From the sequence record NC_049818.1: 51,627 bases of DNA; one strand, written 5' to 3'. Shown here piece by piece: positions 4,303 to 48,956 of this stretch (within the stretch, counting starts at the first letter, position 1; each line of letters starts with the position of its first letter). The DNA comes from Escherichia phage tonijn. The translations under genes and the position numbers were made by a program. Below the pieces are notes generated by a model that searched no databases, had not been told where the DNA came from, and saw only the letters and a list, made by a program, of their open reading frames with translations.

Positions 4303-4374
4303 ATTCCTGTAAAATCAATCTATCAAATAAATCAATTCCACTTTTAACAAAAAGTGCTATAAGGAGATCTTGAG

Positions 4375-5048: not shown

Positions 5049-7730
5049 ATGGCTGAGAAATACGCTGGCCTAACGCTAGGCGTTGACGTGTCGCAGGTCA
5101 ATAATGCTGTTAAATCATTGCAGCAATTCAAGAAGGCAAACGACGACGCAAAAAAAAGCGTTAATGAATTTGTTGATTCTGAGGTTGTGGCGCGACAGCA
5201 AGCTAAACAGTTTGCCGAAGAATTGGCGCGCCAGAAAGCAGAATTTAAGAAAATCCAGGAGTCAATTGATCCCACCGCATCAAAGATGGATAAGCTGCGA
5301 AAGGCAGCGACACAGCTTGATGCGCTATGGAAAAAGGGCATTGTTCCTGATGAGACTTTTTTTGAGCTTGGGGCAATTCTTGAGACACAGCAAAACAAGC
5401 TGATCGCAACCAAAAAAGCGATGACAGAGGAAGGCCGCGCGGCGCTTGAGGAATCAAAGAACAAAGCGCGTGCAGCGGAAGAGGCTAAAAAATTCATCCA
5501 GGCTTTGCGTGAGCAGGAAGAAGCAGCCGGAAAAAGCAAGTCTGAATTGCTGGAAATGAAAGCGGCACAGCTTGGAGTTAGCCAGGAGGCAGCACCTTAC
5601 ATCGCAAGACTGAAAGAGCAGGAAAAGCAGATCCAAAAACTTGGGATTTCTACAGGCCAATACAATCAAGCAATGAAGCTATTGCCAATGCAGATCACAG
5701 ACGTGGTGACTTCACTTGCTTCTGGTATGCCTGTTTGGCTGGTTGCAATCCAGCAGGGCGGACAGATTAAGGATTCTTTTGGTGGCGCATCCAATGCTTT
5801 AAAAGCGTTGCTATCTTTCCTTAATCCGGTAAACGTTGCGTTTGGCTTGCTTTCCGGCACGCTGGCAATTGCTGCATATAATGCCTACAAAACACAGACA
5901 GAGTTTGAGGCAATTAAAAAAACCGTTCAGGAAACAACTGGCTTGACTGGTGATTTTGCCGAAAAGATTGCTACCGGAATCCAGGAGCTTTCCGACAAGA
6001 CAGGAGAAAGCGCCGAAGATCTGGCAAAGGCTTACATCACCACGAAAGACGGCGCGAGCGAGGCGATTAAAAAACTGGTTGACGTTGGCATGACTTATGA
6101 TGACGCAAAAAAGAAAGTCAACGAGTACAAAGGCGCATCTAGCTTTGTTGGCCTGAATAACGACATTGCAAACCACAAAAATAAAATCCTTGAGTTGGGC
6201 GAGTCGTGGTATGAAGTTTTGAAAGCGAAGCGTGATTACGCTTCCCCGTCCGGCGGCCTGTTAGGTAAAGAGCTTGGCTATGTTAATCCTATGCTTAAGT
6301 TTGCACTTAACACTTATGAAGACATTGGAAAGGTCGTAAAAGATGCTAATAAGGACATGGCTGAACGAGCGGAGCGCATCGACAAAGAAAACCTGGCCTT
6401 GAACAGAGTGAGAGCAGCACAGGAGGCTTTAAACAAAGCCATTGAAGATCAGAAGGGCGTGGCGCGTTCGGCTGATGAAGAACTGAAAAAGCGTGCGGCT
6501 GAAAACGTGGAGTTCAGACGCAAAGAGCTTGAGGAGATCAAGAAGCAGGAGCAGAAAAAGAAAGAGGCTAAAGGCGGAATAGTTCGCGGCCCGACTGAGC
6601 AGCTTGATAAAGAGTTGTACGTTTTAAAAGCGCAACTGGAAACTCTTAAAGAGCATCGCACTGTTAATGATGTTATTTCTCGCCAGCGTAAATCTTTATG
6701 GAGCATCGAAAAGCAGATCGAGATCCTGGAGGATGCGCAGAGCAAGCGTAAATTGACCGGAGCGGAACAGGCGCTACTAAACGAGCAAAAATCCGTTTTG
6801 GAAATGGCAAGGCAAAAGGCTGAATTAGGGGATCAGATTGTTTTGCAGGAGCGCAAAAACAAGCTGGAGCAAGATAGCATTAAGTTTATCCGTGAAACGC
6901 AGGCGGCTATTGATGTGCTTGGCCTTAAGCAACTTGGCTACACTGAAAAGCAGATCGAGCGTGAGCTAGAGTTACGCAAGCTGCGCACCGACTACGAGGC
7001 GCAAGGAGGAAGCGTTAGCGATGAAGTTTTTCAGCAAATGGAGGCGAAACTTAAGCAGTATTATCAGACACAGGATGAGGTTCAAGGCAACTGGTTGGCA
7101 GGAGCAAAAAACGCATGGGAGCTATTCGCGGAAGATGCAAACAATGCCTATGGCAATGTTCAGCAGATCGCAAGCGAGGCGTTAAACGGCCTTACAAACC
7201 AATTAGCGAATTTTATCGCTACTGGCAAGGCAAACTTTAAAGACTTCTCGACTGCTATCATCAAAATGATTATTCAGATGATCACGAAAATGGTTGTCTT
7301 TAATGCGTTATCTGGCCTGATGGGTGGTCAAACCTGGACGATGGGGAGCTTGCTTAAGAATATTGGCGGATTTGCTGGCGGTGGATACACTGGCGACGGC
7401 GGGAAGTATGAGCCAGCCGGAATTGTTCATAAGGGTGAATTTGTCATGACTAAGGAGGCAACGCAGCGTATCGGAGTAGGCAACTTGTACCGCATGATGC
7501 GAGGCTATGCTAACGGCGGCGTTGTTGGTGGTTCCGGCTATACTGGCGGTGGCACTGTCACTGGTGGAGCACCTCAATTTAACATCGGTGGGATTGATGT
7601 TAGCATCAATAACGGCAATGATCCGAAGGGTATCGAAACTGGTGTTAAGATGATCTTTACTGATATGATTAGACGTTCCTGTATGCAGGGCGGGGAGGTT
7701 TACGAATTTGTTATGAGCAAGCGAGGTTGA
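5049..7730 (+). CDS. Tail tape measure protein
   Basis: 893-aa ORF, Ala/Lys/Glu-rich coiled-coil sequence with Gly-rich C-terminal region; follows G/GT. Confidence 0.8.
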   Translation: MAEKYAGLTLGVDVSQVNNAVKSLQQFKKANDDAKKSVNEFVDSEVVARQQAKQFAEELARQKAEFKKIQESIDPTASKMDKLRKAATQLDALWKKGIVPDETFFELGAILETQQNKLIATKKAMTEEGRAALEESKNKARAAEEAKKFIQALREQEEAAGKSKSELLEMKAAQLGVSQEAAPYIARLKEQEKQIQKLGISTGQYNQAMKLLPMQITDVVTSLASGMPVWLVAIQQGGQIKDSFGGASNALKALLSFLNPVNVAFGLLSGTLAIAAYNAYKTQTEFEAIKKTVQETTGLTGDFAEKIATGIQELSDKTGESAEDLAKAYITTKDGASEAIKKLVDVGMTYDDAKKKVNEYKGASSFVGLNNDIANHKNKILELGESWYEVLKAKRDYASPSGGLLGKELGYVNPMLKFALNTYEDIGKVVKDANKDMAERAERIDKENLALNRVRAAQEALNKAIEDQKGVARSADEELKKRAAENVEFRRKELEEIKKQEQKKKEAKGGIVRGPTEQLDKELYVLKAQLETLKEHRTVNDVISRQRKSLWSIEKQIEILEDAQSKRKLTGAEQALLNEQKSVLEMARQKAELGDQIVLQERKNKLEQDSIKFIRETQAAIDVLGLKQLGYTEKQIERELELRKLRTDYEAQGGSVSDEVFQQMEAKLKQYYQTQDEVQGNWLAGAKNAWELFAEDANNAYGNVQQIASEALNGLTNQLANFIATGKANFKDFSTAIIKMIIQMITKMVVFNALSGLMGGQTWTMGSLLKNIGGFAGGGYTGDGGKYEPAGIVHKGEFVMTKEATQRIGVGNLYRMMRGYANGGVVGGSGYTGGGTVTGGAPQFNIGGIDVSINNGNDPKGIETGVKMIFTDMIRRSCMQGGEVYEFVMSKRG

Positions 7731-15097: not shown

Positions 15098-15140
15098 CTA
15101 TACACGATCCGGCAAGCCGAGTTTAGCAAAAAGTGCTACT
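15098..15140 (-). promoter_or_regulatory. Conserved 20-bp element plus TATAGT -10, oriented to drive the lipoprotein cassette
   Basis: The - strand reads TAGCACTTTTTGCTAAAC, 18 nt, then TATAGT, then AAGGAG RBS. Confidence 0.45.
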
Positions 15141-15508
15141 TGTTATTTTTTGTTTTCCGGTGTTATCGGATTTAAGGCGGCGTAAATTTAGCGCAAATTT
15201 TAGCCAACATAAGAACAATAAATAATCAATAAAATAGGTATATACATATAAAATCAATAGTTTATTTATTTATGTATGTGTATTTGTTTTTTCTTGTTAT
15301 CTGTGTTTCTTGTGGTTTTGGTTGTTTGTGGTGATTTTTCTTTCTGAGTATCTGTATGTGCCATCATTCATGTGTATGTATATAATCCGGCGTATCTGAG
15401 AGAACGAGGGAACAAGAAAAATAACACATATTAATCATTAACTTACGCGTCAAATTTGTTTTATTGCCATCTGAGAACGTTTAGAAAACAGAAAAAACAA
15501 AACAACTA

Positions 15509-21973: not shown

Positions 21974-22450
21974 TTAGCTATTCGTGCTGTTATCACCTTT
22001 GTAGAATCGTCCGCCTGGTTCGTAGTCTGAATTTTTGACTACGCGCAACATTTCGTATTTGTCGCAACGGGTAGTAAGAGGCTTGCCGTTAGAATCAAAC
22101 CGCAGATCTGGACGACAAAACGAGGCGCGGTATCCTTTGCATCCATTATATTTGTAGTCGTTATGCACCTTTTGTGCTCCAGCGGCTGAAATCATACCAC
22201 GCTTTCGCCATTGGTTAACAACTTGCTGAGATACGCGCAGACGTCGAGCCATAGCAGGAACGCCGCCGTAATACTCGATCAGAATGTCAAGGCGAGATTT
22301 CAGGCTTGCTTTTACCTCATCTCGCAGGATAAGAAATCCGGTTCGGTGTTTTCGTGGCTTTTTGTCTTTACCTCGTCGCGTTCCGTTGTTACCGTTAATA
22401 GTGCGCTTGTCGATCTCACCCGTAGACACTGCAATTCGTGCATCTTTCAT
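21974..22450 (-). CDS. Putative DNA-binding protein (HTH) with basic N-terminal region
   Basis: 158 aa; segment GGVPAMARRLRVSQQVVNQWRKRGMIS resembles a Cro/YdaS-type helix-turn-helix. Confidence 0.5.
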   Translation of the reverse strand: MKDARIAVSTGEIDKRTINGNNGTRRGKDKKPRKHRTGFLILRDEVKASLKSRLDILIEYYGGVPAMARRLRVSQQVVNQWRKRGMISAAGAQKVHNDYKYNGCKGYRASFCRPDLRFDSNGKPLTTRCDKYEMLRVVKNSDYEPGGRFYKGDNSTNS

Positions 22451-24535: not shown

Positions 24536-24954
24536 TGGCTATAACTGATAAAGGCGATTATCTTGAGTTTTACGAAAGAGATCCAACCGACACTAGAAAG
24601 GAAGTTAATCACCAGATAGATAGTTTTCAGTGGTTGACTTATGCTCATCCTTATTTGCTGGCGTGGCATACGGTAAACGAGAATGAGAAGTCTAAAGCAA
24701 CGGCGATGATTGATCAGCAGTCCGGCTTGGTTAAGGGAGTAAGCGATTTCATCATCCTGATTGGCTTAAACGGAAAATACCCCTTTGCGGCGATTGAGAT
24801 CAAACGAGTGAATAAATCAGGCAAGGGGAAAGCATCACCAGTCAGCGATGAACAAAAGGCTTTTTTGCGTCGCGTTCGCAGCTTAGGAGGATTCGCTGCG
24901 GTAGCCTACGGATTCAATCAGTTTAAGTTGGCTATTGAATACATGCTTAAATAG
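24535..24954 (+). CDS. VRR-NUC-type nuclease (putative)
   Basis: 139 aa; GVSDFIILI ... AIEIKR pattern consistent with a PD-(D/E)XK VRR-NUC core. Confidence 0.45.
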   Translation: MAITDKGDYLEFYERDPTDTRKEVNHQIDSFQWLTYAHPYLLAWHTVNENEKSKATAMIDQQSGLVKGVSDFIILIGLNGKYPFAAIEIKRVNKSGKGKASPVSDEQKAFLRRVRSLGGFAAVAYGFNQFKLAIEYMLK

Positions 24955-24995
24955 CACTTTTTGTTAAAACTGGCGCGATGGATTGCGCCATAATT
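24949..24995 (+). promoter_or_regulatory. Conserved 20-bp element, GC dyad and ATAAT; stop codon of the upstream gene embedded
   Basis: AAATAGCACTTTTTGTTAAAAC 24949-24970, dyad ggcgcgatggattgcgcc, then cATAATt. Confidence 0.5.
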
Positions 24996-25034
24996 CAATA
25001 ACACGAGATGGCTTTTAATAGCGGAGAAATGAAA

Positions 25035-25760
25035 ATGGCTAAAGATATTTTAGATAAAGACACCCATGACGCATTCGTTAGCTTTGAGCAGTTGGAGAGA
25101 GAAACGTTTATAGGGAATGCCCTTGCAACTGGAGGCCATTACCAGGCAGTAAAGCCAAATCAATATTATAAGGTAAGTGGCAACCGATACGCTGGAAGCA
25201 CCACGCCGGACGTTGTGCGCGATATGTGGAGCACGCCTCAAGAGATTGTGGAGTGGATGGAATCAGAATTTGGTGAATACGATCTCGACGCGGCAGCAAG
25301 CCAGGAAAACGCAGTTTGCGAGAAGTTCTATAGCAAGGAAACAAACTGCTTAAAGCGTTGGTGGGGTAGCAACAAGCACGTATGGCTTAACCCGCCGTAC
25401 AGCAACCCAACTCCATTTATCAAGAAAGCAATTGAGCAAATGGAGCACAACAACCAAATTGATGTTTTGTTGCCAGCCGACAACTCTACAGCATGGTTTT
25501 ATGAGGCGCAGAAAAACGCGGCTGAAATCATCTGGATCACTGGCGAGGTTTACGAAGAGGGTGGAGTAGAATACTCCCGCACCGGAAGAATCGCCTTTGT
25601 GTCTGGATTGACTGGCGAGCCTGTACAGGGCAACAACAAGGGGAGCGTGATTTTTGTCATGCGAAAACTTAAAGAAGGCGAGGAGCAGAAAACGCGATAC
25701 GTTAAGATCAGCGATATTTGCCCTTCTGTAACCGAACGCCGCGCGCGCAAACGGAGCTAA
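25035..25760 (+). CDS. DNA N6-adenine methyltransferase (phage Dam-type)
   Basis: NPPY catalytic motif (HVWLNPPYSN); start chosen at the third ATG, 8 nt after GGAG; alternative starts 25008 or 25029. Confidence 0.6.
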   Translation: MAKDILDKDTHDAFVSFEQLERETFIGNALATGGHYQAVKPNQYYKVSGNRYAGSTTPDVVRDMWSTPQEIVEWMESEFGEYDLDAAASQENAVCEKFYSKETNCLKRWWGSNKHVWLNPPYSNPTPFIKKAIEQMEHNNQIDVLLPADNSTAWFYEAQKNAAEIIWITGEVYEEGGVEYSRTGRIAFVSGLTGEPVQGNNKGSVIFVMRKLKEGEEQKTRYVKISDICPSVTERRARKRS

Positions 25761-25764
25761 CACG

Positions 25765-26022
25765 ATGAAAAAAGAGAGAAGCGTTTATTTAAATGAAACT
25801 GGCGAATGGTTGTTATTTCGCGCTATGGTGTGCGATGCACTTGATAAAAATCCTAACGTGAAAAAGATGATTGATTGCGATCCGTGGGAATTTTCAAGCG
25901 CATTAGATATGAGCTTTGAGGAGACAAGAAAACTCCCGCTTGAAAAATGGCACGAACAAATCAGAAATGACATGCAAGAGTTTGTTGATTCGTGGAATTT
26001 TCAGCACGGAATGATCCACTAA
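25765..26022 (+). CDS. Hypothetical protein
   Basis: 85-aa ORF; stop embedded in the 20-bp element. Confidence 0.45.
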   Translation: MKKERSVYLNETGEWLLFRAMVCDALDKNPNVKKMIDCDPWEFSSALDMSFEETRKLPLEKWHEQIRNDMQEFVDSWNFQHGMIH

Positions 26023-26066
26023 TAGCACTTTTTGTTAAAACGCCCGGCCTAGTGTCGGGCATAATT
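26021..26066 (+). promoter_or_regulatory. Conserved 20-bp element plus hairpin plus ATAATT; left arm of an inverted pair with 29240..29283
   Basis: AATAGCACTTTTTGTTAAAACgcccggcctagtgtcgggcATAATT. Confidence 0.5.
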
Positions 26067-26098
26067 ATTTCAACGAAGCAAACATGAGGAAATAAAAA

Positions 26099-26278
26099 AT
26101 GGTGGTATTCGATAAACGCGCTTTTAATCTTGCTCAAGAAGTAGCAAAAGGTTCAGTGGATGGCGGTTCAAAGGAAGGGTTCCAGTTTGATTGGGAGATC
26201 GCAATGTTTTTACTGAAAGTTGCATACGGTCACGCGCCAATTGAACAAGCGGAGGCATATTATAAGCATGAAGGTTGA
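26099..26278 (+). CDS. Small hypothetical protein (59 aa), below the ORF-track size cutoff
   Basis: ATG 26099 with GAGG 26086-26089 downstream of the element/-10; stop TGA 26276-26278. Confidence 0.4.
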   Translation: MVVFDKRAFNLAQEVAKGSVDGGSKEGFQFDWEIAMFLLKVAYGHAPIEQAEAYYKHEG

Positions 26279-26510
26279 GCAAGGGAGAGAGGCGGTATGG
26301 AATCACGCTAAAGAATGCGGTATTGCCGACGATATAAAGAAGATCGCGCAATACTTTGATATTGCAGATGTGAGCATAATTAGCGGTGATAAGATGACTT
26401 TCCTCAAGGAAAGGCCGCGAAAAATGGTAAGAGTTCCAGCAGTTCCAACAAAAATTGATTTCAAAGAGGCAATGGCTAAAATCCGAGAGCCTCGCAAATA
26501 TTATAAATGA
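26267..26510 (+). CDS. Hypothetical protein
   Basis: ATG 26267 eleven nt after GGAGG; in frame with track ORF 26220..26510. Confidence 0.45.
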
Positions 26511-26604
26511 GGATAGTTATCATGTGGCGCTTGTTTGTTCTACCGTTACCCGTTATCATCGCTGTTACAGTTATGTACCATATAGTAATGAGATAGGTAG
26601 CAGA

Positions 26605-27720
26605 ATGAAAAATGTAAAAATTACAGATGAGCAATTCAAGATCGAACGGGCGGCAGGTAAGACATATAAACAGATCGCTCAAGAGTACGGAATGAATGTG
26701 AGAAGCGTCGAGCGTCGCGCGGCGCGTCTTGCAAAGCAAGGACAGTTATCGACCATTGGAGCGCCTGGTTTTGGTGTTCATGGTGAGTCAGTAATGACCG
26801 ACAAAGAAGGCAACATAATCCTCAAGTGGACCAAAACCAGCAAGGACAAAGAGCAATTAGAAGCATTGATGCGCGCAGCAATGGAGGCGTTTAGCGAGGA
26901 AGTGCCGCGATTAGATCCAGTTCCATTGCAGGAGCGTGACTATAATGAAACGCTTTCATTGTATCCGATCTTTGACATGCACTTAGGCGCTATGGCCCAT
27001 AAGCACGAATGCGGCGAAAATTGGGATACTGCGACGGCGGAGCGCGTTATGAATAACTTTATCGACTATGCTTTGATGTGCGCACCTGACAGTGAAAAGG
27101 CTGTTATCCTGATTGGTGGCGACATGCTTCATAGCGATGGCCTGGAGGCTGTGACCCCTGCAAGCGGTCACGTACTTGATCAAGATAGCCGATATGCAAA
27201 ATTGGTTTACGTTGCAATACGTGCAATGCGCCGCGCAATTAATAAAATGCTGTTAAAGCATAAACATGTTGAGGTCCAGATCGTTGAGGGCAATCACGAC
27301 CAATCAGGAATGATTTGGCTACGCGCAGCAATGGCGGCAGCATATGAGAACGAGCCGCGCGTTTACGTTGATGTTTCTCCTCGCGTTGTTCACCACACGC
27401 AATACGGAAAAACTTTCCTTGCGTACCATCACGGGCACACAGTGCGTAAACCGGAGACTTTGCTAATGATGTGCGCGTCAGATTGGCGGGAGGACTTCGG
27501 AAACTCAAAAACGATGTATGCGCACGTAGGGCACTGGCATCACCAGACCGTGACGGAAACGTCGCTTGGGATCGTGGAGGTACATAGCACCCTGGCGGCA
27601 AAAGACGCATACGCCGCGCGCGGTGGCTGGAGATCTCGACGCCGTGCGGCGGTTATCATTTACGACAAAGAGCATGGAGAAGTCGGGCGATTTGTTCACT
27701 ATCCAGAAATGATGAATTGA
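26605..27720 (+). CDS. Calcineurin-like metallophosphoesterase with N-terminal HTH domain
   Basis: Metallophosphatase motifs in order: DMH, GGDMLHSD, EGNHDQ, YHHGH, GHWHH; N-terminal YKQIAQEYGMNVRSVERRAARL looks like a helix-turn-helix. Confidence 0.6.
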   Translation: MKNVKITDEQFKIERAAGKTYKQIAQEYGMNVRSVERRAARLAKQGQLSTIGAPGFGVHGESVMTDKEGNIILKWTKTSKDKEQLEALMRAAMEAFSEEVPRLDPVPLQERDYNETLSLYPIFDMHLGAMAHKHECGENWDTATAERVMNNFIDYALMCAPDSEKAVILIGGDMLHSDGLEAVTPASGHVLDQDSRYAKLVYVAIRAMRRAINKMLLKHKHVEVQIVEGNHDQSGMIWLRAAMAAAYENEPRVYVDVSPRVVHHTQYGKTFLAYHHGHTVRKPETLLMMCASDWREDFGNSKTMYAHVGHWHHQTVTETSLGIVEVHSTLAAKDAYAARGGWRSRRRAAVIIYDKEHGEVGRFVHYPEMMN

Positions 27721-27764
27721 TGAATTTTTATTTAAATCAATGACAAATTAAATCAAAAACTTGC

Positions 27765-27795
27765 AAAGGGGCGGCGTTTGTCGCCTCTTTTTTTT
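27765..27795 (+). terminator. Rho-independent terminator
   Basis: Imperfect hairpin aggggcggcg/gtcgcctct followed by T8. Confidence 0.5.
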
Positions 27796-27865
27796 GTTTA
27801 ATTTTTTACCATGTGCGTTTATCATGCGGTCAATATATTGACTTTAATTAATATGGAGAATAAAA

Positions 27866-28081
27866 ATGAAAGATTTTATTAACGCAGCTACCGCCGGATC
27901 TGGCGGTTCATCTATCGCAAGCGCCGCTACAGGGCAGTTAACCATTGCTATTGCCAGTTTTGTTTTAATGGCTGCATTCGGTGCGTGGGGCGCTTACCTT
28001 CGCTGGCGTGATAGTAAAAAATTCCACGAGGCGATCGAAAAAGGTGATATTCAAAAAGCTATTGAAATCAGGGGCAAGTAA
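27866..28081 (+). CDS. Holin (putative pinholin)
   Basis: 71 aa, hydrophobic segments and charged C-terminus; immediately upstream of the endolysin. Confidence 0.55.
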
Positions 28082-28572
28082 TGAGCATAAAGAACAAGGT
28101 AGCGGCTGCGGCCTTTGGCGTTGCGGTTGCCTTGACTTCTCCACTTCTTGAAGAGATCGAAGGGGTAAGATACAAGCCATACAAAGATATTGCGGGAATA
28201 TGGACGGTTTGCGCAGGAATCACCGGACCAGATGTTATCCTGGGGAAAACGTACACTAAAAAAGAGTGTGATGCTTTGTTGGCTAAGCATATCCAGGTTG
28301 CTAAAAAGGAAGTTGACAAGCAAGTTAAGGTTGACATTCCTGATAGTATGCGTGCAGCAATGTACTCATTCACTTACAATGCAGGTGTGGGAGCTTTCAG
28401 AAATTCAACAATGCTGAAACTCATCAACCAGGGGAAATTAAACGAGGCTTGCGATCAGCTTTATCGTTGGACGTATTACCATAACCCCAAAACAGGAAAG
28501 CGCGAGAAGTCTAAAGGCTTACTTAACAGGCGCAAGGTCGAATACAAATATTGCACAATGGATCTGAAATGA
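28081..28572 (+). CDS. SAR endolysin (lysozyme with N-terminal signal-anchor-release domain)
   Basis: N-terminal weakly hydrophobic Ala/Gly-rich segment, then [22 protein letters not shown] resembling a T4-lysozyme-type catalytic E-D-T region. Confidence 0.7.
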
Positions 28573-28964
28573 TGAAGAAATTTTTATTTACACCAATCGC
28601 AATGGCGGTGATCTTGTCTGGATGTTCAAGCGTTACGCCACTGACCGGATTAATCGGCAGTAAGCCGGAAATAACAGCACAGGCTGGCGCGGAGAACGTG
28701 AAGCAGACAGTTGGCATTACAGCAAAGCAGGACGCCAGCACAAAACAGGAAACCACAATAAAGGAATCTGCGGTTGACAAGGTGGACACGTCCAGCAAGA
28801 AGGATTTCACAACATCAACCATTCAGGCCAATACCATCAAGGCAGACAAAATTCAGGTCGTGCAGGGTAATAACGGCAGATGGTACGATCCAATAATCAT
28901 ATGCGTGGTTGTGTTCATTGTGCTGATTTGTCTTTACTGGAGGGAAAAGAAAAAGGAGGCTTAA
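28569..28964 (+). CDS. Unimolecular spanin (lipoprotein with C-terminal TM helix)
   Basis: ATG 28569 overlaps the endolysin stop; lipobox ILSGCSS at the N-terminus and TM segment [16 protein letters not shown] at the C-terminus. Confidence 0.6.
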
Positions 28965-28982
28965 TGCCTCCTTTATTTTTAT
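28956..28982. terminator. Bidirectional terminator at the lysis cassette / leftward block boundary
   Basis: Hairpin aggaggcttaatgcctcct followed by T-rich tract. Confidence 0.55.
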
Positions 28983-29203
28983 GCGTCGGGCCACATATGA
29001 GTTTCGTTTGTTGGCTTGTTCGATTCGTCGTACTGCCTTACTTCAATGCTGCAAGTGTCGCCGTACAGTTCTGCAATCTTGCGCTCATTTTCAACCGCCG
29101 ATTGCTCACTCCATCCAAAATCCCTGTCGTAAATTGTCGGTATTTCAGCAGAAGATCCGTTGTCATGATTATATACGCGAACTACTAAAAACTTGCTGGA
29201 CAT
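28979..29203 (-). CDS. Hypothetical protein
   Basis: 74-aa ORF downstream of the element copy at 29240-29283. Confidence 0.45.
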   Translation of the reverse strand: MSSKFLVVRVYNHDNGSSAEIPTIYDRDFGWSEQSAVENERKIAELYGDTCSIEVRQYDESNKPTNETHMWPDA

Positions 29204-29239
29204 AATTTTACCTTTTGGTTGTTTCGTTTCGATGAAACA

Positions 29240-29283
29240 AATATACCCGACACTAGGCCGGGCGTTTTAACAAAAAATGCTAT
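29240..29283 (-). promoter_or_regulatory. Conserved 20-bp element plus hairpin; right arm of the inverted pair with 26021..26066
   Basis: The - strand reads AATAGCATTTTTTGTTAAAACgcccggcctagtgtcgggtATATTT. Confidence 0.5.
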
Positions 29284-29474
29284 TCCATACGCTTTACCGT
29301 AACCAGTAATACACCATCATCATTGCATAAAACATGTTCAGTGGTGCTAAAAGCGCGCATATCTGAATAAAGTAGCGTAAGTAAAGCATGAATAAAATCC
29401 TCATGTGATATTGAATTTACGGCGCAGTGCTTCAAGATCTTGTCTATTAGCTTTTGCCTGGAACAATTCATCAT
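29280..29474 (-). CDS. Small hypothetical protein (start uncertain; overlaps the end of 29401..29796)
   Basis: Stop TAG embedded in the 20-bp element as in other boundary cassettes; alternative internal start at 29360. Confidence 0.3.
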   Translation of the reverse strand: MMNCSRQKLIDKILKHCAVNSISHEDFIHALLTLLYSDMRAFSTTEHVLCNDDGVLLVTVKRME

Positions 29475-29796
29475 CGCCCATCTCCCCTATTCTCGCCATA
29501 TCCCTGATCCAGTCGTTGCGCATACCATCCAGGCTATACAATTCGAATCCGAAAGGACGCTTTGACGATCCTTTGGACCAGTATTTACCGCAGACCCCAT
29601 CTATATAGCCAGCCGTCATCATTCTTGCGCAAAATTCCTTAGATGCAAGGCTGGCGAACATTCGCGGCGTAAGTCCGGCGGCACGTGCGAGCCGCTCGCA
29701 TTCTCTATGCTGATAGATAAATTTGGCTATGTGCTGCCTGTTAAACCAGTCGTATGACTCACACCATTTATACAGATCAAGCAAAAACATAATCAT
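29401..29796 (-). CDS. Hypothetical protein
   Basis: 131-aa ORF; ATG overlaps the stop of the upstream gene (ATGA). Confidence 0.5.
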   Translation of the reverse strand: MIMFLLDLYKWCESYDWFNRQHIAKFIYQHRECERLARAAGLTPRMFASLASKEFCARMMTAGYIDGVCGKYWSKGSSKRPFGFELYSLDGMRNDWIRDMARIGEMGDDELFQAKANRQDLEALRRKFNIT

Positions 29797-31373
29797 CCCA
29801 GCAGTATTGGATTTACAAAAATAACACCATTAATCACACAAACATAATTTCTCTCTTCCAGCATTGGCAGCAAGTGCCCTTCTATCCTCTTCATTACGCC
29901 AGCTTGACCAACGAAAGGTTTTACCTTTCTCGCTGATTCGTACAGGGCGCGGATATTCAGAATCCCTTTATTAGCCTTGCCGTGTCTAGTGATCAATTCA
30001 ATCAATTTACCCATTTCAGCATCATCACCAGCATAACCAGAAGCATTGGCGGCGCTAATGTATGTTTTGCTCAATTCCTGAAACATGATCAGCGCCTCTT
30101 GCATTGTTTCCACGTCGATCTCTTTCGACTTCTGCGGGTATCCAGCAGGATTAAACCAGTTGCGGATAACATGCAGGACGGAAGCAAGCCTGATCACCTG
30201 TTTATCCATTTTACCCAGCGCACCGCGTAACATTGTATGAGAATACTTTCCGCCGTCTGCAAGATGCGGTTCCATATCCTGGCGAGCAATGTTGAGCACT
30301 CGCATAGCTGAACGGCTTATTTTCAGCGATACATTTGATTCGCTCATGATGTTATGCACCAATTGATAATATTGGGCCTTCAATTCAGAATCCACCGCCT
30401 CATAGGTAGAATCACCATTTTCATCAATGAATGAGCGACGGCCTAAGAATGATTCCTCACGTACCAACAAAAAGCGCTCACTCACACCGATACCGCGCGA
30501 TCCAGCGTCCATGATTCCGCTTATCGTTTCATCCTGGGCTATAACGCTCATACATCCAAGTGCGCGAAAACTCATGTTATTGTCAGCATTAGCACGGGCA
30601 ATTGATACGTGACCATTATCCCACGCCTTAAGCACTAGCTCGCTGTTAGTCTTCCTTTCGCTATTGGCATAGGTCAAGCCTAACAGACTGTTAATACTTG
30701 TTGCTTCGTCAGATATTACGGCAAAGTTACCTTGCTTGTTGTTGATTTTTGCCAAGCCTTCTGGAGTTGTATCTGAAACAGGGAAAGTTATATCACACAT
30801 CTTTTCCAGCTTCTCCTCCAGATCCTCTTTTTCCTGGTATAGAGATTCCATATCAGCGCCTGATCTTTCGCTTTTCATCTCCTTTGCAAGACCTGCCAAC
30901 TTTGCCTGTATTTTCTTTCTTTCCTTGCGGCGTTGCTCGTTGATCTTCTCAACTTCCGCAATCATCGGAGCAATAGCCATACTATTGATCGCAGATTTAC
31001 CAGTTGACGGCGGCTGGCTTGTAACAACGTAAAGCGCAGTCGGCTGATCGGTTCCGTGATAGTCAACCGTAAAGCGTCCAAGCATAGCGGCAGAAATGCA
31101 GCCGATAAAGTGCATGTAAGCTGATGATTCAGGGAATTGAACGGATCGCGCAATGCTGCGTGATAGCTTGCCGACAACATCAATATCATTACCAAGAGAA
31201 ATAACGGGGTAGCGATCGTGACCGCTATTTACATCCTTCACGTCGCCCCAAAAGCTGGACGACTGGCGATAGCCGTTAGCCTGAATTGATACGCGAACTG
31301 GTGAAAGGTTCTGGCTTTCAGCCATAGCGATTATTTGCTGTGGAGTTAATTTGTTCGTTTCTAATGAAAACAT
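29793..31373 (-). CDS. P-loop NTPase of unknown function (Walker A and B)
   Basis: 526 aa; Walker A QPPSTGKSA and Walker B-like FAVISDEAT; AAGGAG RBS. Confidence 0.55.
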   Translation of the reverse strand: MFSLETNKLTPQQIIAMAESQNLSPVRVSIQANGYRQSSSFWGDVKDVNSGHDRYPVISLGNDIDVVGKLSRSIARSVQFPESSAYMHFIGCISAAMLGRFTVDYHGTDQPTALYVVTSQPPSTGKSAINSMAIAPMIAEVEKINEQRRKERKKIQAKLAGLAKEMKSERSGADMESLYQEKEDLEEKLEKMCDITFPVSDTTPEGLAKINNKQGNFAVISDEATSINSLLGLTYANSERKTNSELVLKAWDNGHVSIARANADNNMSFRALGCMSVIAQDETISGIMDAGSRGIGVSERFLLVREESFLGRRSFIDENGDSTYEAVDSELKAQYYQLVHNIMSESNVSLKISRSAMRVLNIARQDMEPHLADGGKYSHTMLRGALGKMDKQVIRLASVLHVIRNWFNPAGYPQKSKEIDVETMQEALIMFQELSKTYISAANASGYAGDDAEMGKLIELITRHGKANKGILNIRALYESARKVKPFVGQAGVMKRIEGHLLPMLEERNYVCVINGVIFVNPILLG

Positions 31374-46025: not shown

Positions 46026-47593
46026 TGATCATATGGGAAGATTTGACGGCGGCGCAAAAGCGAGCCATTAAAGAAATCAGTGAGCATTCATTCGAAAAGA
46101 TGATCAGGATCTGGTTCCAACTATTACAGGGGCAAAAATTCCAGAGCAACTGGCATTTTAGCTTATTGTGCAGTGAGGTAGAGAAGATCATCAATGGAGA
46201 GTCGCAGAATGTGATTTTCAACATTACGCCAGGTAGCGGCAAGACTGAGATTTTCTCGATCCACATGTCACCCTACGCGTCATTGAAAAGCCGGAAAGTG
46301 AGAAACCTTAACCTTTCGTTTAGTGATGGCCTTGTCCAGCAAAACAGCAACCGGATAAAGGAGATTATCGGTTCTCCTGAGTGGCAAGAGCTATGGCCTG
46401 GAAAACTGGCAAAGGCGAGCGCTAAAGATCTGATAGTCACCGAAGGCGGCAAGGTTAAATTGCAAGTTAACTCACGTTCTATTGGCGGCCAGGTAACAGG
46501 TTTGCGTGGCGGCTATATGGACGATGGTTTTACTGGTATGCTGGTTCTTGACGATCCAGACAAGCCGGATGATATGCTTTCTAAGGTCAAGCGCGAGGCT
46601 ATTCACATGCGGTTAAAAAACACAGTGCGATCGCGTCGAATGAAAGACACCACGCCAATTGTTATGGTGCAACAGCGACTACACGTTAATGATTCCACCT
46701 GGTTCATGCTTAATGGCGGGATGGGTGGTATTGAGTTTAAAGTCGTGAGCATTCCGGCGCTGGTTACGAAAGAATACCGCGAAACGCTTCCTGATTGGTT
46801 GAAGCCTGAATTTGATCGTGATGTGCTGTCAAGTAAGCCAGTGATGATAGATGGCGTCGCTCATTATTCATTTTGGCCTGCGAAGGAAAGCGCGGAGGAG
46901 TTGCTTGCATTGCGCAATGCAGATCCTTACACGTTCGCCAGCCAATACCAACAGCAACCAATCGCGCTTGGCGGGAACGTGTTTAAAACAGAGTGGTTCC
47001 AGTATTACGGCAGCGGCGAAAAGTGCGCACTACCAAAACCGGATCGCTTTGAATACACATTTATTACTGGAGATACCGCGCAGAAGGCCGGAGAGCTTAA
47101 CGACTATTCGGTTTTTTGTTATTGGGGGATGTATAAGAATCGCGTTTACTTCATTGATGGCATTCGCGGAAAGTGGGAAGCGCCGGATCTTGAATTAAAT
47201 TTTATTGCCTTCGTTAACCAGTGCTGGAAGCGCAATAAGGAGTGTGGCAGCTTGCGACGTATCCACATTGAGGATAAGGCCAGCGGCACGGGTTTGATTC
47301 AGGGGGCCAAAAAGAAGATCCCGATTGATATAAATCCCGTTCAGCGAAGCAATGACAAGGTGACGCGAGCAATGGACGCCGCGCCAGTAATGAGGGCCGG
47401 ACGTGTGGCGCTGCCAGAAAATCACCCCATGCTGCCTGAGATACTGGCAGAGGTTGCAGCATTCACTTTTGATGATTCTCATCCCCATGATGATATTGTC
47501 GATAATATAGTTGATGCTGTTAACGTCGAAATGAACTTGGCAGATGATCCGGTGGCAAGGATGAAAAAGCTGGCTGGTCTACGCAATAAATAG
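46025..47593 (+). CDS. Terminase large subunit
   Basis: Walker A ITPGSGKTE and Walker B MLVLDDPD; 522 aa; followed by portal gene. Confidence 0.8.
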   Translation: MIIWEDLTAAQKRAIKEISEHSFEKMIRIWFQLLQGQKFQSNWHFSLLCSEVEKIINGESQNVIFNITPGSGKTEIFSIHMSPYASLKSRKVRNLNLSFSDGLVQQNSNRIKEIIGSPEWQELWPGKLAKASAKDLIVTEGGKVKLQVNSRSIGGQVTGLRGGYMDDGFTGMLVLDDPDKPDDMLSKVKREAIHMRLKNTVRSRRMKDTTPIVMVQQRLHVNDSTWFMLNGGMGGIEFKVVSIPALVTKEYRETLPDWLKPEFDRDVLSSKPVMIDGVAHYSFWPAKESAEELLALRNADPYTFASQYQQQPIALGGNVFKTEWFQYYGSGEKCALPKPDRFEYTFITGDTAQKAGELNDYSVFCYWGMYKNRVYFIDGIRGKWEAPDLELNFIAFVNQCWKRNKECGSLRRIHIEDKASGTGLIQGAKKKIPIDINPVQRSNDKVTRAMDAAPVMRAGRVALPENHPMLPEILAEVAAFTFDDSHPHDDIVDNIVDAVNVEMNLADDPVARMKKLAGLRNK

Positions 47594-47647
47594 CACTAAT
47601 TGCTAAAAAGTTATATAATCAAGGCTGGATTTTTCCAGCCTTTTTTA
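47588..47647 (+). promoter_or_regulatory. Variant element (ATAGCACTAATTGCTAAAAAG), TATATAAT and terminator-like hairpin
   Basis: TATAAT 47615-47620; hairpin aggctggatttttccagcct 47622-47641 followed by T6. Confidence 0.45.
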
Positions 47648-47663
47648 TTATGGAGATTTGACG

Positions 47664-48956
47664 ATGAGTGAAAAAACAAGGCTAGTTAAGGCCGATGGAT
47701 ACAACGAGATTTTCAAGGGCAGCAAGGGCAATGGGCGTGTGGAGTTGCCTTTCTTTATGCAAGGGTTCGAATACACCACGCACGCTGATTTTTACATTCG
47801 CGACGGCCTAGCAAAACGAATCATCGACGTTGTTCCAGAAGAAATGGTGACACCTGGATTTAATATTGATGGCGTGGAAGATGAGGAGAGTTTTAGATCT
47901 TTGTGGGATGAGAAGCGACTAAACGATAAAATCATTGATGCGCTTTGCTGGTCGCGTCTTTTTGGTGGCGCTGCAATCGTGGCAATCGTTCAGGATGGCA
48001 GGGCATTAAAGTCACCTGTAGCGCCTGGTGCAATCCTTGAAGATGTTCGCGTTTACGATCGCTTTCAGGTTCGCGTAGAAAAGCGAGAAACTAATCCGCG
48101 CAAGGTGCGATATGGTGAGCCATTGATTTACACTATTACACCTGGTGCTGACCTGCCAGAATACCAGGTTCACTATTCGCGAGTCTGTATTATCGACGGT
48201 GAGCGGCTACCAAATCAGCGACGTCAATCAAATGATGGATGGGGTGAGTCGATCCTGAATAAGCGACTTGTTGAGGCTATTTGTGATTATAACTACTGCG
48301 AAAACTTAGCAACTCAATTGTTGCGACGTAAGCAACAGGCGGTATGGAAAGCTAAAGGTCTTGCTGATCTTTGTGATGATGATGATGGTGTTAACGCCGC
48401 ACGTTTGCGCCTTGCTCAAGTTGATGATGAGGGTGGCGTGGGCCGTGCGATCGGCATTGATGCGGAAGATGAGGAATATGATGTTTTAAATTCTGATATT
48501 TCCGGCGTCGATTCATTCCTTGAAAAGAAGATGGATCGCATTGTATCTCTTTCCGGCATCCATGAAATCATCCTCAAAAACAAGAACGTTGGCGGTGTTA
48601 GTGCGAGCCAAAACACGGCGCTTGAAACCTTCTACAAGCTGATCGACCGAAAGCGAAAGGAAGAATACAAACCAATCCTTGAATTTCTGATCCCGTTCCT
48701 GATTCAAGAGCAAGAATGGAGTATTCAGTTTGCGCCGTTAAGCGTTCCCAGCGAAAAGGACCAGGCCGAGATCTTGAACAAGAATATTGATTCTTTGAGC
48801 AAGGCTATTGACGGTCAATTCATGGATACAGAGGAGGCGCGCGACACATTGCGAGCCATTGCGCCTAACGTTAAACTAAAAGACGGCAATAACATTAAAT
48901 TACCTGAGCAGGACGTAGAGCCGGAGCCAGGAACAACCGAGGGTAACGATCAATGA
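47664..48956 (+). CDS. Portal protein
   Basis: ATG 47664 after GGAG; 430 aa directly downstream of the large terminase gene. Confidence 0.6.
   Translation: MSEKTRLVKADGYNEIFKGSKGNGRVELPFFMQGFEYTTHADFYIRDGLAKRIIDVVPEEMVTPGFNIDGVEDEESFRSLWDEKRLNDKIIDALCWSRLFGGAAIVAIVQDGRALKSPVAPGAILEDVRVYDRFQVRVEKRETNPRKVRYGEPLIYTITPGADLPEYQVHYSRVCIIDGERLPNQRRQSNDGWGESILNKRLVEAICDYNYCENLATQLLRRKQQAVWKAKGLADLCDDDDGVNAARLRLAQVDDEGGVGRAIGIDAEDEEYDVLNSDISGVDSFLEKKMDRIVSLSGIHEIILKNKNVGGVSASQNTALETFYKLIDRKRKEEYKPILEFLIPFLIQEQEWSIQFAPLSVPSEKDQAEILNKNIDSLSKAIDGQFMDTEEARDTLRAIAPNVKLKDGNNIKLPEQDVEPEPGTTEGNDQ

Follow-up and report, generated by a model that had tools for sequence, protein, structure and literature searches.

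Inverted repeats around the phosphoesterase and lysis genes of Escherichia phage tonijn as probable convergent, marbox-type promoters

Two near-identical copies of a short element lie in opposite orientation on either side of the phosphoesterase-like and lysis genes of Escherichia phage tonijn, and the question that they raise is whether the pair marks a movable block of genes or has a more ordinary role. We analyzed the 51,627 nt of sequence record NC_049818.1 (hereafter, the window), in which arm A is 26021-26066 on the plus strand, AATAGCACTTTTTGTTAAAACGCCCGGCCTAGTGTCGGGCATAATT, and arm B is the reverse complement of 29239-29284. With 98-99% sequence identity in this region to Escherichia phages vB_Eco-B1.2, PeterMerian and tiwna, the window is a Warwickvirus genome (Drexlerviridae, Tempevirinae), T1-like in type. 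A preliminary description of the locus had seen in the arms a recent duplication or a recombination substrate that delimits an exchangeable module. We think it probable instead that they are two ordinary copies of a T1-family promoter, convergent and of the marbox type. For the pair itself this outcome is deflationary, a known genome-wide promoter repeat being neither an inversion switch nor a module boundary; the marbox match, in turn, gives the T1-family repeats a specific and simply testable mechanism.

The arms and their repeat family

The close resemblance of the arms, put at about 3 mismatches in the preliminary description, is confirmed. They differ at 3 of 46 positions (C/T in a 20-mer, C/T at the last base of a hairpin and A/T in a -10 hexamer), and a repeat search extends the similarity to 26021-26082 and 29223-29284, 62 nt with 89% complementarity and the best inverted pair of the window. 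The coordinates first given for A were correct; those for B, 29240-29283, fell one base short at each end, the minus-strand arm being 29239-29284. The genes listed between the arms are also as described: two small open reading frames (ORFs), a helix-turn-helix (HTH)/metallophosphoesterase-like gene, holin, endolysin, spanin and one minus-strand ORF of 74 aa. A search of the window at up to 3 mismatches finds the 19-nt hairpin sequence at these two sites alone (expected 0). Other copies of the repeat resemble A or B at 77-79% over 61-78 nt, and A and B are ahead of the rest of the family by a modest margin, all members being alike over 60-80 nt.

The core of that family is the 20-mer ATAGCACTTTTTGTTAAAAC, a common repeat of the window with 19 copies. 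Across the whole window, 16 copies of the 20/21-mer are found at up to 3 mismatches (0.01 expected), looser matching gives about 19-20, and the copies are highly uniform, many of them identical at 20 of 20 positions. Every copy with a recognizable downstream ORF is oriented toward that ORF. The repeat has been seen before: a 2024 re-annotation of phage TLS reported a 21-nt direct repeat, "DR" (aaATAGCACnnnTTGnTAAAA), at 21 places, co-directional with transcription and about 76 nt 5' of start codons, noted its presence in T1, Rtp and Rogue1, found almost no sigma-70 consensus promoters in TLS, and raised a stoperator, an enhancer-binding site and an UP element as options (PMC11447400). Arm A matches the DR consensus aaATAGCACnnnTTGnTAAAA exactly, and arm B differs from it solely by a C-to-T change at ATAGCAc. 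In every defining feature tested, both arms are members of this Drexlerviridae family.

Alignment of all copies reveals a fixed order of upstream stop codon, 20-mer, spacer, -10-like hexamer, leader, GAGGA and ATG. The spacer between the box formed by the 20-mer and the hexamer is 18 nt long (17 nt in two copies), and a -10-like hexamer (CATAAT, TATAAT, TATATT, TATAGT, TACATT or TAAAAT) stands 17-18 nt past the box in 16 of the 19 copies. Where a downstream ORF was detected, its start codon, with a Shine-Dalgarno sequence, lies mostly 48-60 nt past the end of the box, so that the box starts some 70-80 nt 5' of the ATG, and A and B each face a gene of their own. The leader motif (t)CATCGAAACGA..GAGGA is common to most copies. 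A consensus scan called no canonical sigma-70 promoter at the repeat copies, which have no -35 at 16-18 bp. This layout makes it likely, in our judgment, that A and B are convergent promoters that face each other, A ahead of three plus-strand genes and B ahead of one small minus-strand ORF.

Two features of the copies deserve mention in their own right. The upstream stop codon falls within the box or abuts it, either as the TAG of ATAGCAC or as a TAA or TGA directly before (26020-26025, 29280-29283 and others), and coding sequence reaches directly to the next promoter. Two other sigma-factor readings of the element were tried and rejected. Taking TTGTTA as the -35 of a canonical sigma-70 promoter would leave a spacer of 22 nt, and such sites were not called by the scan. 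As a sigma-54 promoter, for which the consensus is TGGCAC-N5-TTGC, the phage ATAGCAC-N3-TTG has a spacing 2 nt short and AG in place of GG, and a fixed -10 follows it.

Marbox match, putative activator and spacer hairpin

The box that stands where a -35 would be expected to make contact is recognizable. The marbox consensus in use by the Grainger laboratory is gcannwwntgnnaaa, and class II marboxes are those in forward orientation that overlap the -35 (PMC12052159). The phage box GCACTTTTTGTTAAA fits this consensus at 15 of 15 specified positions, and the window holds 19 exact consensus matches where 1.6 are expected; none of 100 shuffles gave more than 5. When compared with the crystallized micF and mar sites (sequences from PMC8279559), the phage 20-mer is identical at 15 of 20 positions to the micF box, ACAGCACTGAATGTCAAAAC, and equally to the mar box, ATGCCACGTTTTGCTAAATC, while these two agree with each other at just 10 of 20. 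Spacing matches as well. The genomic micF promoter of E. coli reads 20-bp box, 18 nt, TAGAAT, then 6-7 nt to the 5' end of MicF (located by Rfam match), and the phage elements share this arrangement, with a 20-bp box, 18 nt and CATAAT (A) or TATATT (B). If transcription starts 6-8 nt past the hexamer, a register predicted from the -10 itself, GCAC would lie at -47 to -44 and the center of the box near -41. In the cryo-electron microscopy structure of Rob and RNA polymerase on micF, Rob makes contacts with -47G and -45A and pushes sigma region 4 off the -35 (PMC9178005), and RamA on micF sits at about -41 (PMC8811837). Judged by sequence, the box fits the marbox perfectly, lies in forward orientation and has the class II geometry of micF.

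The composite element would accordingly run from the upstream stop codon through the box ATAGCACTTTTTGTTAAAAC, an 18-nt spacer, the (C/T)ATAAT-like -10, a conserved, A-rich leader and a Shine-Dalgarno sequence to the ATG. Most likely, a marbox-binding activator sits on the box, substitutes for the -35 contact and brings sigma-70 RNA polymerase to the -10. Host Rob, MarA or SoxS probably fills this role, because no phage homologue was found: a phmmer search (--max, six-frame ORFs of at least 50 aa, approximate query sequences) returned no MarA/SoxS homologue in the window, and the candidate of a phage-encoded one was dropped at a best E-value of 0.24. Promoter A would drive two small ORFs and the phosphoesterase-like gene as far as the terminator at 27765-27790, and promoter B the single 74-aa accessory ORF as far as the bidirectional terminator at 28952-28974.

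A different account of the same box is that a phage-encoded protein recognizes it, either an activator or a stoperator-type repressor like that of mycobacteriophage L5, possibly delivered with the virion, and that the likeness to marboxes is a matter of convergence or chance. Compared with the degenerate host marboxes, the 20-mer is far more uniform, which suggests a dedicated, high-specificity factor; stoperator or enhancer-binding roles were proposed by the TLS authors (PMC11447400); and the phage has small HTH proteins, such as the Cro/YdaS-like one at 21974-22450 and the sigma-70 region 4-like N terminus of the phosphoesterase-like protein. We nevertheless consider this account unlikely. 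None of the reading frames encodes a detectable AraC/XylS-type protein, Pfam searches with the candidate HTH proteins gave just Cro/YdaS-like and weak sigma-70 region 4 matches, and the consensus, the orientation and the exact 18-nt micF spacing all fit, which goes beyond chance resemblance. Moreover, if all promoters carry the box, the earliest transcription must precede any phage protein.

The N terminus of the phosphoesterase-like ORF (26602-26750) gives a weak sigma-70 region 4-like/HTH_28 match (E 0.002-0.01), which precedes a metallophosphoesterase match that is also weak, and the related record Jahat_MG145 annotates the protein as 'sigma 70 region'. As a protein that binds the box, it would be a purely speculative candidate.

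Less likely still, and in our view improbable, is that the box works without an activator, as an UP-element-like or extended contact for the alpha and sigma subunits of RNA polymerase, and that the copies are very strong constitutive promoters. The CTTTTTGTTAAAAC part of the box does resemble the UP core TTTT-N3-AAA, but a canonical UP element spans -59 to -38 and the box lies about 8 bp nearer to the -10, a register on which the canonical element was rejected and kept as a weak rival alone. Although an UP element was among the options raised by the TLS authors (PMC11447400), the invariant GCAC is foreign to UP elements and equals the marbox A site contacted by Rob (PMC9178005), and there is no usable -35 at 16-18 bp.

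Under the marbox-type promoter reading, the spacer also calls for an explanation. A GC-rich hairpin fills the 18-nt spacer in A, in B and in the copies at 24951, 32119, 37473 and 42078. Hairpin A is predicted to fold at -13.0 kcal/mol (z -2.9) as sense RNA versus -10.4 kcal/mol as antisense, and hairpin B shows a larger bias in the same direction (Table 1). Comparison among related phages reveals covariation. In 16 distinct A/B-type spacers, 98% of cells are paired, three pairs change on both sides (C-G to A-U, C-G to U-A and G-C to A-U) and one alternates between A-U and G-U; in the orthologous promoter before the Dam gene, pairing is complete (100%) across ten very different spacers, two pairs show G-C/C-G swaps and G-U is frequent. 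Shifting the partner positions, as a control, abolishes pairing in both sets. Because a G-U pair is an A·C mismatch on the other strand, selection appears to act on the structure in the promoter-sense strand, as carried by RNA that arrives from the co-directional gene upstream. A terminator scan flags hairpins A and B as terminator-like in the sense direction, with the interrupted U-tracts AUAAUUAUUU and AUAUUUGUUU as tails, and the curated T1 record (L008) annotates the equivalent hairpin at 5294-5316, inside its copy at 5272, as a rho-independent terminator.

We infer that the spacer hairpin may be a terminator, an insulator or a 3'-end-stabilizing stem nested in the next promoter. Hairpin A would serve as terminator or insulator for the upstream Dam/gp52 transcript, and hairpin B would do so for the helicase/YdbL-like operon upstream on the minus strand. 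Read on the sense strand, the hairpin probably halts the incoming upstream transcript or stabilizes its 3' end, and each unit would then rely on the promoter in front of it. A nut site of the lambda type (boxA with a boxB GNRA hairpin) was tried as a reading of the element and rejected: GAAA-loop hairpins in some relatives speak for it, but many copies have no hairpin, the loops vary and the fixed -10 would go unexplained. An Rfam scan of 24800-29900 gave no match near any gathering score.

Several considerations weigh against the marbox-type promoter reading. Classical selections for T1-resistant E. coli give fhuA and tonB mutants, not rob; therefore, Rob or any other single host factor is unlikely to be essential, and dependence on Rob would need redundancy or basal activity to be invoked. 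Unstressed cells contain little MarA and SoxS, and most of the Rob is sequestered (PMC9178005). Promoter activity and activator identity are predictions, and in the searchable literature we found neither transcription start-site or binding data for T1-like phages, nor T1-family transcriptomes, nor any link of marboxes, Rob, MarA or SoxS to T1-like phages. As to the hairpin, several copies are without one, which makes it optional, and the tail AUAAUUAUUU is a poor U-tract compared with those of the window's real terminators. Finally, the copies at 606, 4360 and 47590 do not fit a simple picture of a promoter before a gene.

These odd copies have their own peculiarities. Those at 587-607 and 4341-4361, both on the minus strand, lie between plus-strand structural genes and point antisense to them. 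In the copy at 4360, a -10-like TAGATT stands 18 nt past the box, as usual, and a hairpin, aaaaaggggcgcaacgcccctt, followed by gtttt, comes about 25 nt on, because of which either its antisense RNA would be very short or its effect would come through interference. At 47590-47680 (plus strand), a variant box, ATAGCACTAATTGCTAAAAA, has TATAAT 4 nt later, a misfit to the layout of box, 18 nt and hexamer, and a strong terminator-like hairpin (ggctggatttttccagcc, then tttttt) comes right before the Shine-Dalgarno sequence of the next gene. Adjoining a divergent copy at 15139, GT-rich degenerate tandem repeats with an 8-nt and a 19-nt register occupy 15251-15340.

Extended to the whole group, the marbox match raises the possibility, which we hold only tentatively and as somewhat less than probable, that T1-like phages run essentially their whole transcription program from idealized class II marboxes by way of host Rob, MarA or SoxS (RamA in Klebsiella). 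If true, expression of the phage genes would be linked to the host's envelope, oxidative or bile stress, many copies would embed the terminator of the upstream unit within a promoter spacer, and the T1-family repeats left open by the TLS paper would be explained by a form of dependence on host factors that is new for a virulent phage. T1-like phages, notorious as laboratory contaminants and considered as candidates for phage therapy, may thus tie their expression to stress regulators that also control antibiotic resistance.

Block, pair and exchange among relatives

Does the pair also delimit a unit? The segment between the arms is not a single unit but three or more transcription units that have their own terminators (Table 1), and the neighbors of the arms are Dam, small ORFs, the phosphoesterase-like gene, the lysis genes, a YdbL-like protein and a helicase. 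A marbox scan of the window found no marbox-type promoter for the lysis cassette. Between 27721 and 27866 there is just a weak TTGACT-18-AAAAAT match before the holin start, directly behind the terminator, and expression of the lysis genes may rely on terminator read-through or antitermination.

Table 1. Features between 26020 and 29284 of the window; promoters, hairpins and terminators are as predicted
Feature	Position	Strand	Remarks
Upstream ORF, TAA stop	26020-26022	+	Abuts and overlaps the promoter A box
Promoter A, 20-mer ATAGCACTTTTTGTTAAAAC	26022..26041	+	Exact match to GCANNWWNTGNNAAA; marbox-like DR repeat; predicted -50 to -31
Promoter A, spacer hairpin GCCCGGCCTAGTGTCGGGC	26042..26060	+	7-bp stem including one G-U, 5-nt loop; fills the 18-nt spacer
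Promoter A, -10 hexamer CATAAT	26060..26065	+	18 nt past the 20-mer; micF-like layout
Promoter A, discriminator, leader tCAaCGAAgCAAAC and Shine-Dalgarno GAGGAAA	26066..26098	+	Leader motif common to most copies
A transcription unit, three ORFs	26099..27720	+	From gene calls and relatives
59-aa ORF, PHROG 2180	26099-26278	+	Mosaic, replaceable gene; first gene after promoter A
80-aa ORF	26268-26510	+	A unit
HTH/metallophosphoesterase-like protein	about 26524/26602-27720	+	A unit
Strong intrinsic terminator	27765..27790	+	Ends the A unit, 5' of the lysis genes; 11-bp stem, then TTTTTTGTTT; -16.6 kcal/mol, z -5.1
Lysis cassette	27866..28964	+	Holin 27866-28081, endolysin 28081-28572, spanin about 28569-28964
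Bidirectional intrinsic terminator	28952..28974	both	Between the converging lysis and B units; called on both strands; -17.1/-14.2 kcal/mol, z -5.1/-3.5
74-aa ORF, PHROG 27210	28979..29203	-	Accessory gene under promoter B; replaced by an unrelated ORF or missing in relatives
Promoter B, leader TGTTTCATCGAAACGAAAC... and Shine-Dalgarno AAAAGG	29204..29239	-	From sequence and comparison
Promoter B, -10 hexamer TATATT	29240..29245	-	18 nt past the 20-mer
Promoter B, spacer hairpin GCCCGGCCTAGTGTCGGGT	29245..29263	-	-10.9 kcal/mol sense vs -5.3 antisense
Promoter B, 20-mer ATAGCATTTTTTGTTAAAAC	29264..29283	-	Marbox-like; TAG stop of the upstream ORF 29280-29474 inside

The preliminary description had proposed that the 3.2-kb phosphoesterase-lysis block is inverted or exchanged, with the arms as a functional recombination substrate. 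The arms being the best inverted repeat of the window, with a spacer identical at both sites, and promoter repeats serving as local exchange points, as they do in T4-like phages, the proposal has something to recommend it, and since the pair is inverted, recombination between A and B would invert the block rather than delete it. Alignment with related genomes shows neither inversion nor replacement of the whole block. Sliding identity profiles place the interior (phosphoesterase and lysis genes) collinear with its flanks, on one strand, in 9 of 9 aligned relatives, and its divergence equals that of the flanks. A synthetic inversion junction, in which the left flank and arm A run into the inverted interior, was matched by 228 of 50,697 phage records, none of which (0/228) covers at least 80% of it; the best coverage, about 61%, corresponds to the normal left half alone. 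No site-specific recombinase gene was found among the genes neighboring the arms, internal terminators split the block, and, as shown below, the A and B alleles reassort independently. Public genomes thus largely refute the movable module already, and we regard it as highly improbable.

Insertions in relatives tell the same story, as they fall within the block from A to B and not at its ends: an HNH gene in mar001J1, an HNH gene and an ORF in T1, and a PNK/NTPase gene in Webervirus. The HNH homing-endonuclease genes (1507-1992 in L034, the mar001J1 record, and 5344-5826 in L008, that of T1) lie at different points inside the block. Because the HNH inserts sit within it, small-scale plasticity is found inside the block rather than at its ends.

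To judge how special the pair is, A and B elements were collected from 18 Warwickvirus and Hanrivervirus genomes, with B-type copies from Tunavirus and other Drexlerviridae; a spacer pattern scan of IMG/VR returned 17 loci. The hairpin class CCCGRY-loop-RYCGGG occurs at both A and B in Warwickvirus and Hanrivervirus, and at B also in Tunavirus, and related cccggcGAAAgtcggg hairpins occupy other copies in T1 and Webervirus. Since the same class is present at A and B across these genera, the pairing is old, contrary to the suggested recent duplication. In each of the genomes examined, 7-12 positions distinguish the 62-nt arms, and the 8 differences in the window are typical.

Spacer alleles in the 18 close relatives come in six combinations: A1B1, with identical spacers (the window, tiwna, PeterMerian, FritzSarasin and mar001J1), A1B2 (L012/L015), A1B3 (tunus), A2B1 (L023 and vB_EcoS-95), A2B3 (tonn and swan01) and A2B4 (Jahat). 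The spacers of A and B reassort freely, and no force keeps the copies matched. The A1/B1 spacer shares a T-to-A change in the loop relative to CCTTGTGT (present at A in Hanrivervirus and at B in tonn), and its identity at the two sites would most simply reflect one short ectopic conversion. The closeness of A and B would then have two sources, a common, old sub-class of hairpin and leader and, in this lineage, an 18-nt spacer that was probably also swapped by short gene conversion. On this pattern, we think that the pair is in all probability incidental and has no function as a unit.

What the relatives do exchange is smaller. The earlier idea of an exchange boundary survives at each arm, where the promoter-proximal small ORF is swapped, and fails for the whole 3.2-kb block. 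In comparison with tonn and L023, which are 97-98% identical overall, identity falls to 57% solely across 26100-26300, coinciding exactly with the 59-aa ORF after promoter A. The B unit cannot be aligned in haarsle and L013 and is missing in PGN590, T1 and Webervirus; in PGN590, the B promoter and its ORF are missing together. Over 61 nt, haarsle (Tempevirinae) and ISF002 (Tunavirus, Tunavirinae) have the same B promoter, which is joined to two unrelated ORF families, PHROG 27210 and PHROG 10679. The promoter copies thus act locally, as recombination joints at which small accessory ORFs are exchanged.

A remark on databases is in order. Some phage records that name Campylobacter or Streptococcus as host, such as MG065665 ('Campylobacter phage A131') and OR786094 ('Streptococcus phage MBBL140'), share 72-93% identity with this coliphage region, and they are probably T1-like contaminants or carry mislabeled hosts.

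Comparison with known systems

Invertible segments of the Gin/Cin/Hin type have inverted repeats of tens of base pairs around a few kilobases, as at this locus. Unlike them, the tonijn segment comes without a recombinase gene, an enhancer or a second orientation in any genome, and its repeats belong to a 19-copy promoter family.

A closer parallel is offered by the promoter-early/stem-loop cassettes (PeSLs) of T4-like phages, which mediate modular shuffling (PMC2839356, PMC4122927). Both PeSLs and the A/B elements are short repeated motifs of promoter and stem-loop that lie beside small accessory ORFs, at the joints of indels and replacements. The order of parts differs, with the terminator stem-loop of PeSLs preceding a sigma-70 early promoter and the stem-loop here standing between the putative activator box and the -10, and so does the distribution, PeSLs being direct repeats in hyperplastic regions and the tonijn repeats a genome-wide family in which A and B are inverted. 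We found no homology to T4-type PeSL motifs or to TTGACA-17-TATAAT, so that the likeness is one of analogy alone; as such, the local recombination joints extend the PeSL idea from T4-like phages to Drexlerviridae.

With the DR family, the elements of the window share the sequence, the co-orientation with genes and a distance of about 75 nt from box start to start codon; the copy number is 19 here and 21 in TLS, and the TTT, GAA and AAA sub-classes of the central DR triplet are all found in the window. The inverted A/B pair is, unlike DR in general, specific to Tempevirinae-type genomes that carry an accessory ORF after the spanin. The repeat family is thus already known. The marbox match, the class II geometry and the hairpin nested in the spacer, as read from the window, appear to be new, as the DR paper (PMC11447400) makes no mention of a fixed -10, spacer hairpins or marbox identity.

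It is with class II marbox promoters, micF in particular (PDB 1D5Y; PMC9178005, PMC8811837), that the phage elements agree most fully. The box is in both cases asymmetric, 20 bp long and with GCAC and AAA 7 bp apart, and it stands in forward orientation, 18 nt before the -10, in a promoter without a functional -35, and the box center lies near -41, in the phage as predicted. Host marboxes are degenerate and occur one per promoter at about 40 scattered genes. The phage, to whose boxes activator binding is predicted, has about 19 near-identical, idealized copies that head essentially all transcription units of a virulent genome, many of them, unlike host marbox promoters, with a hairpin within the spacer.

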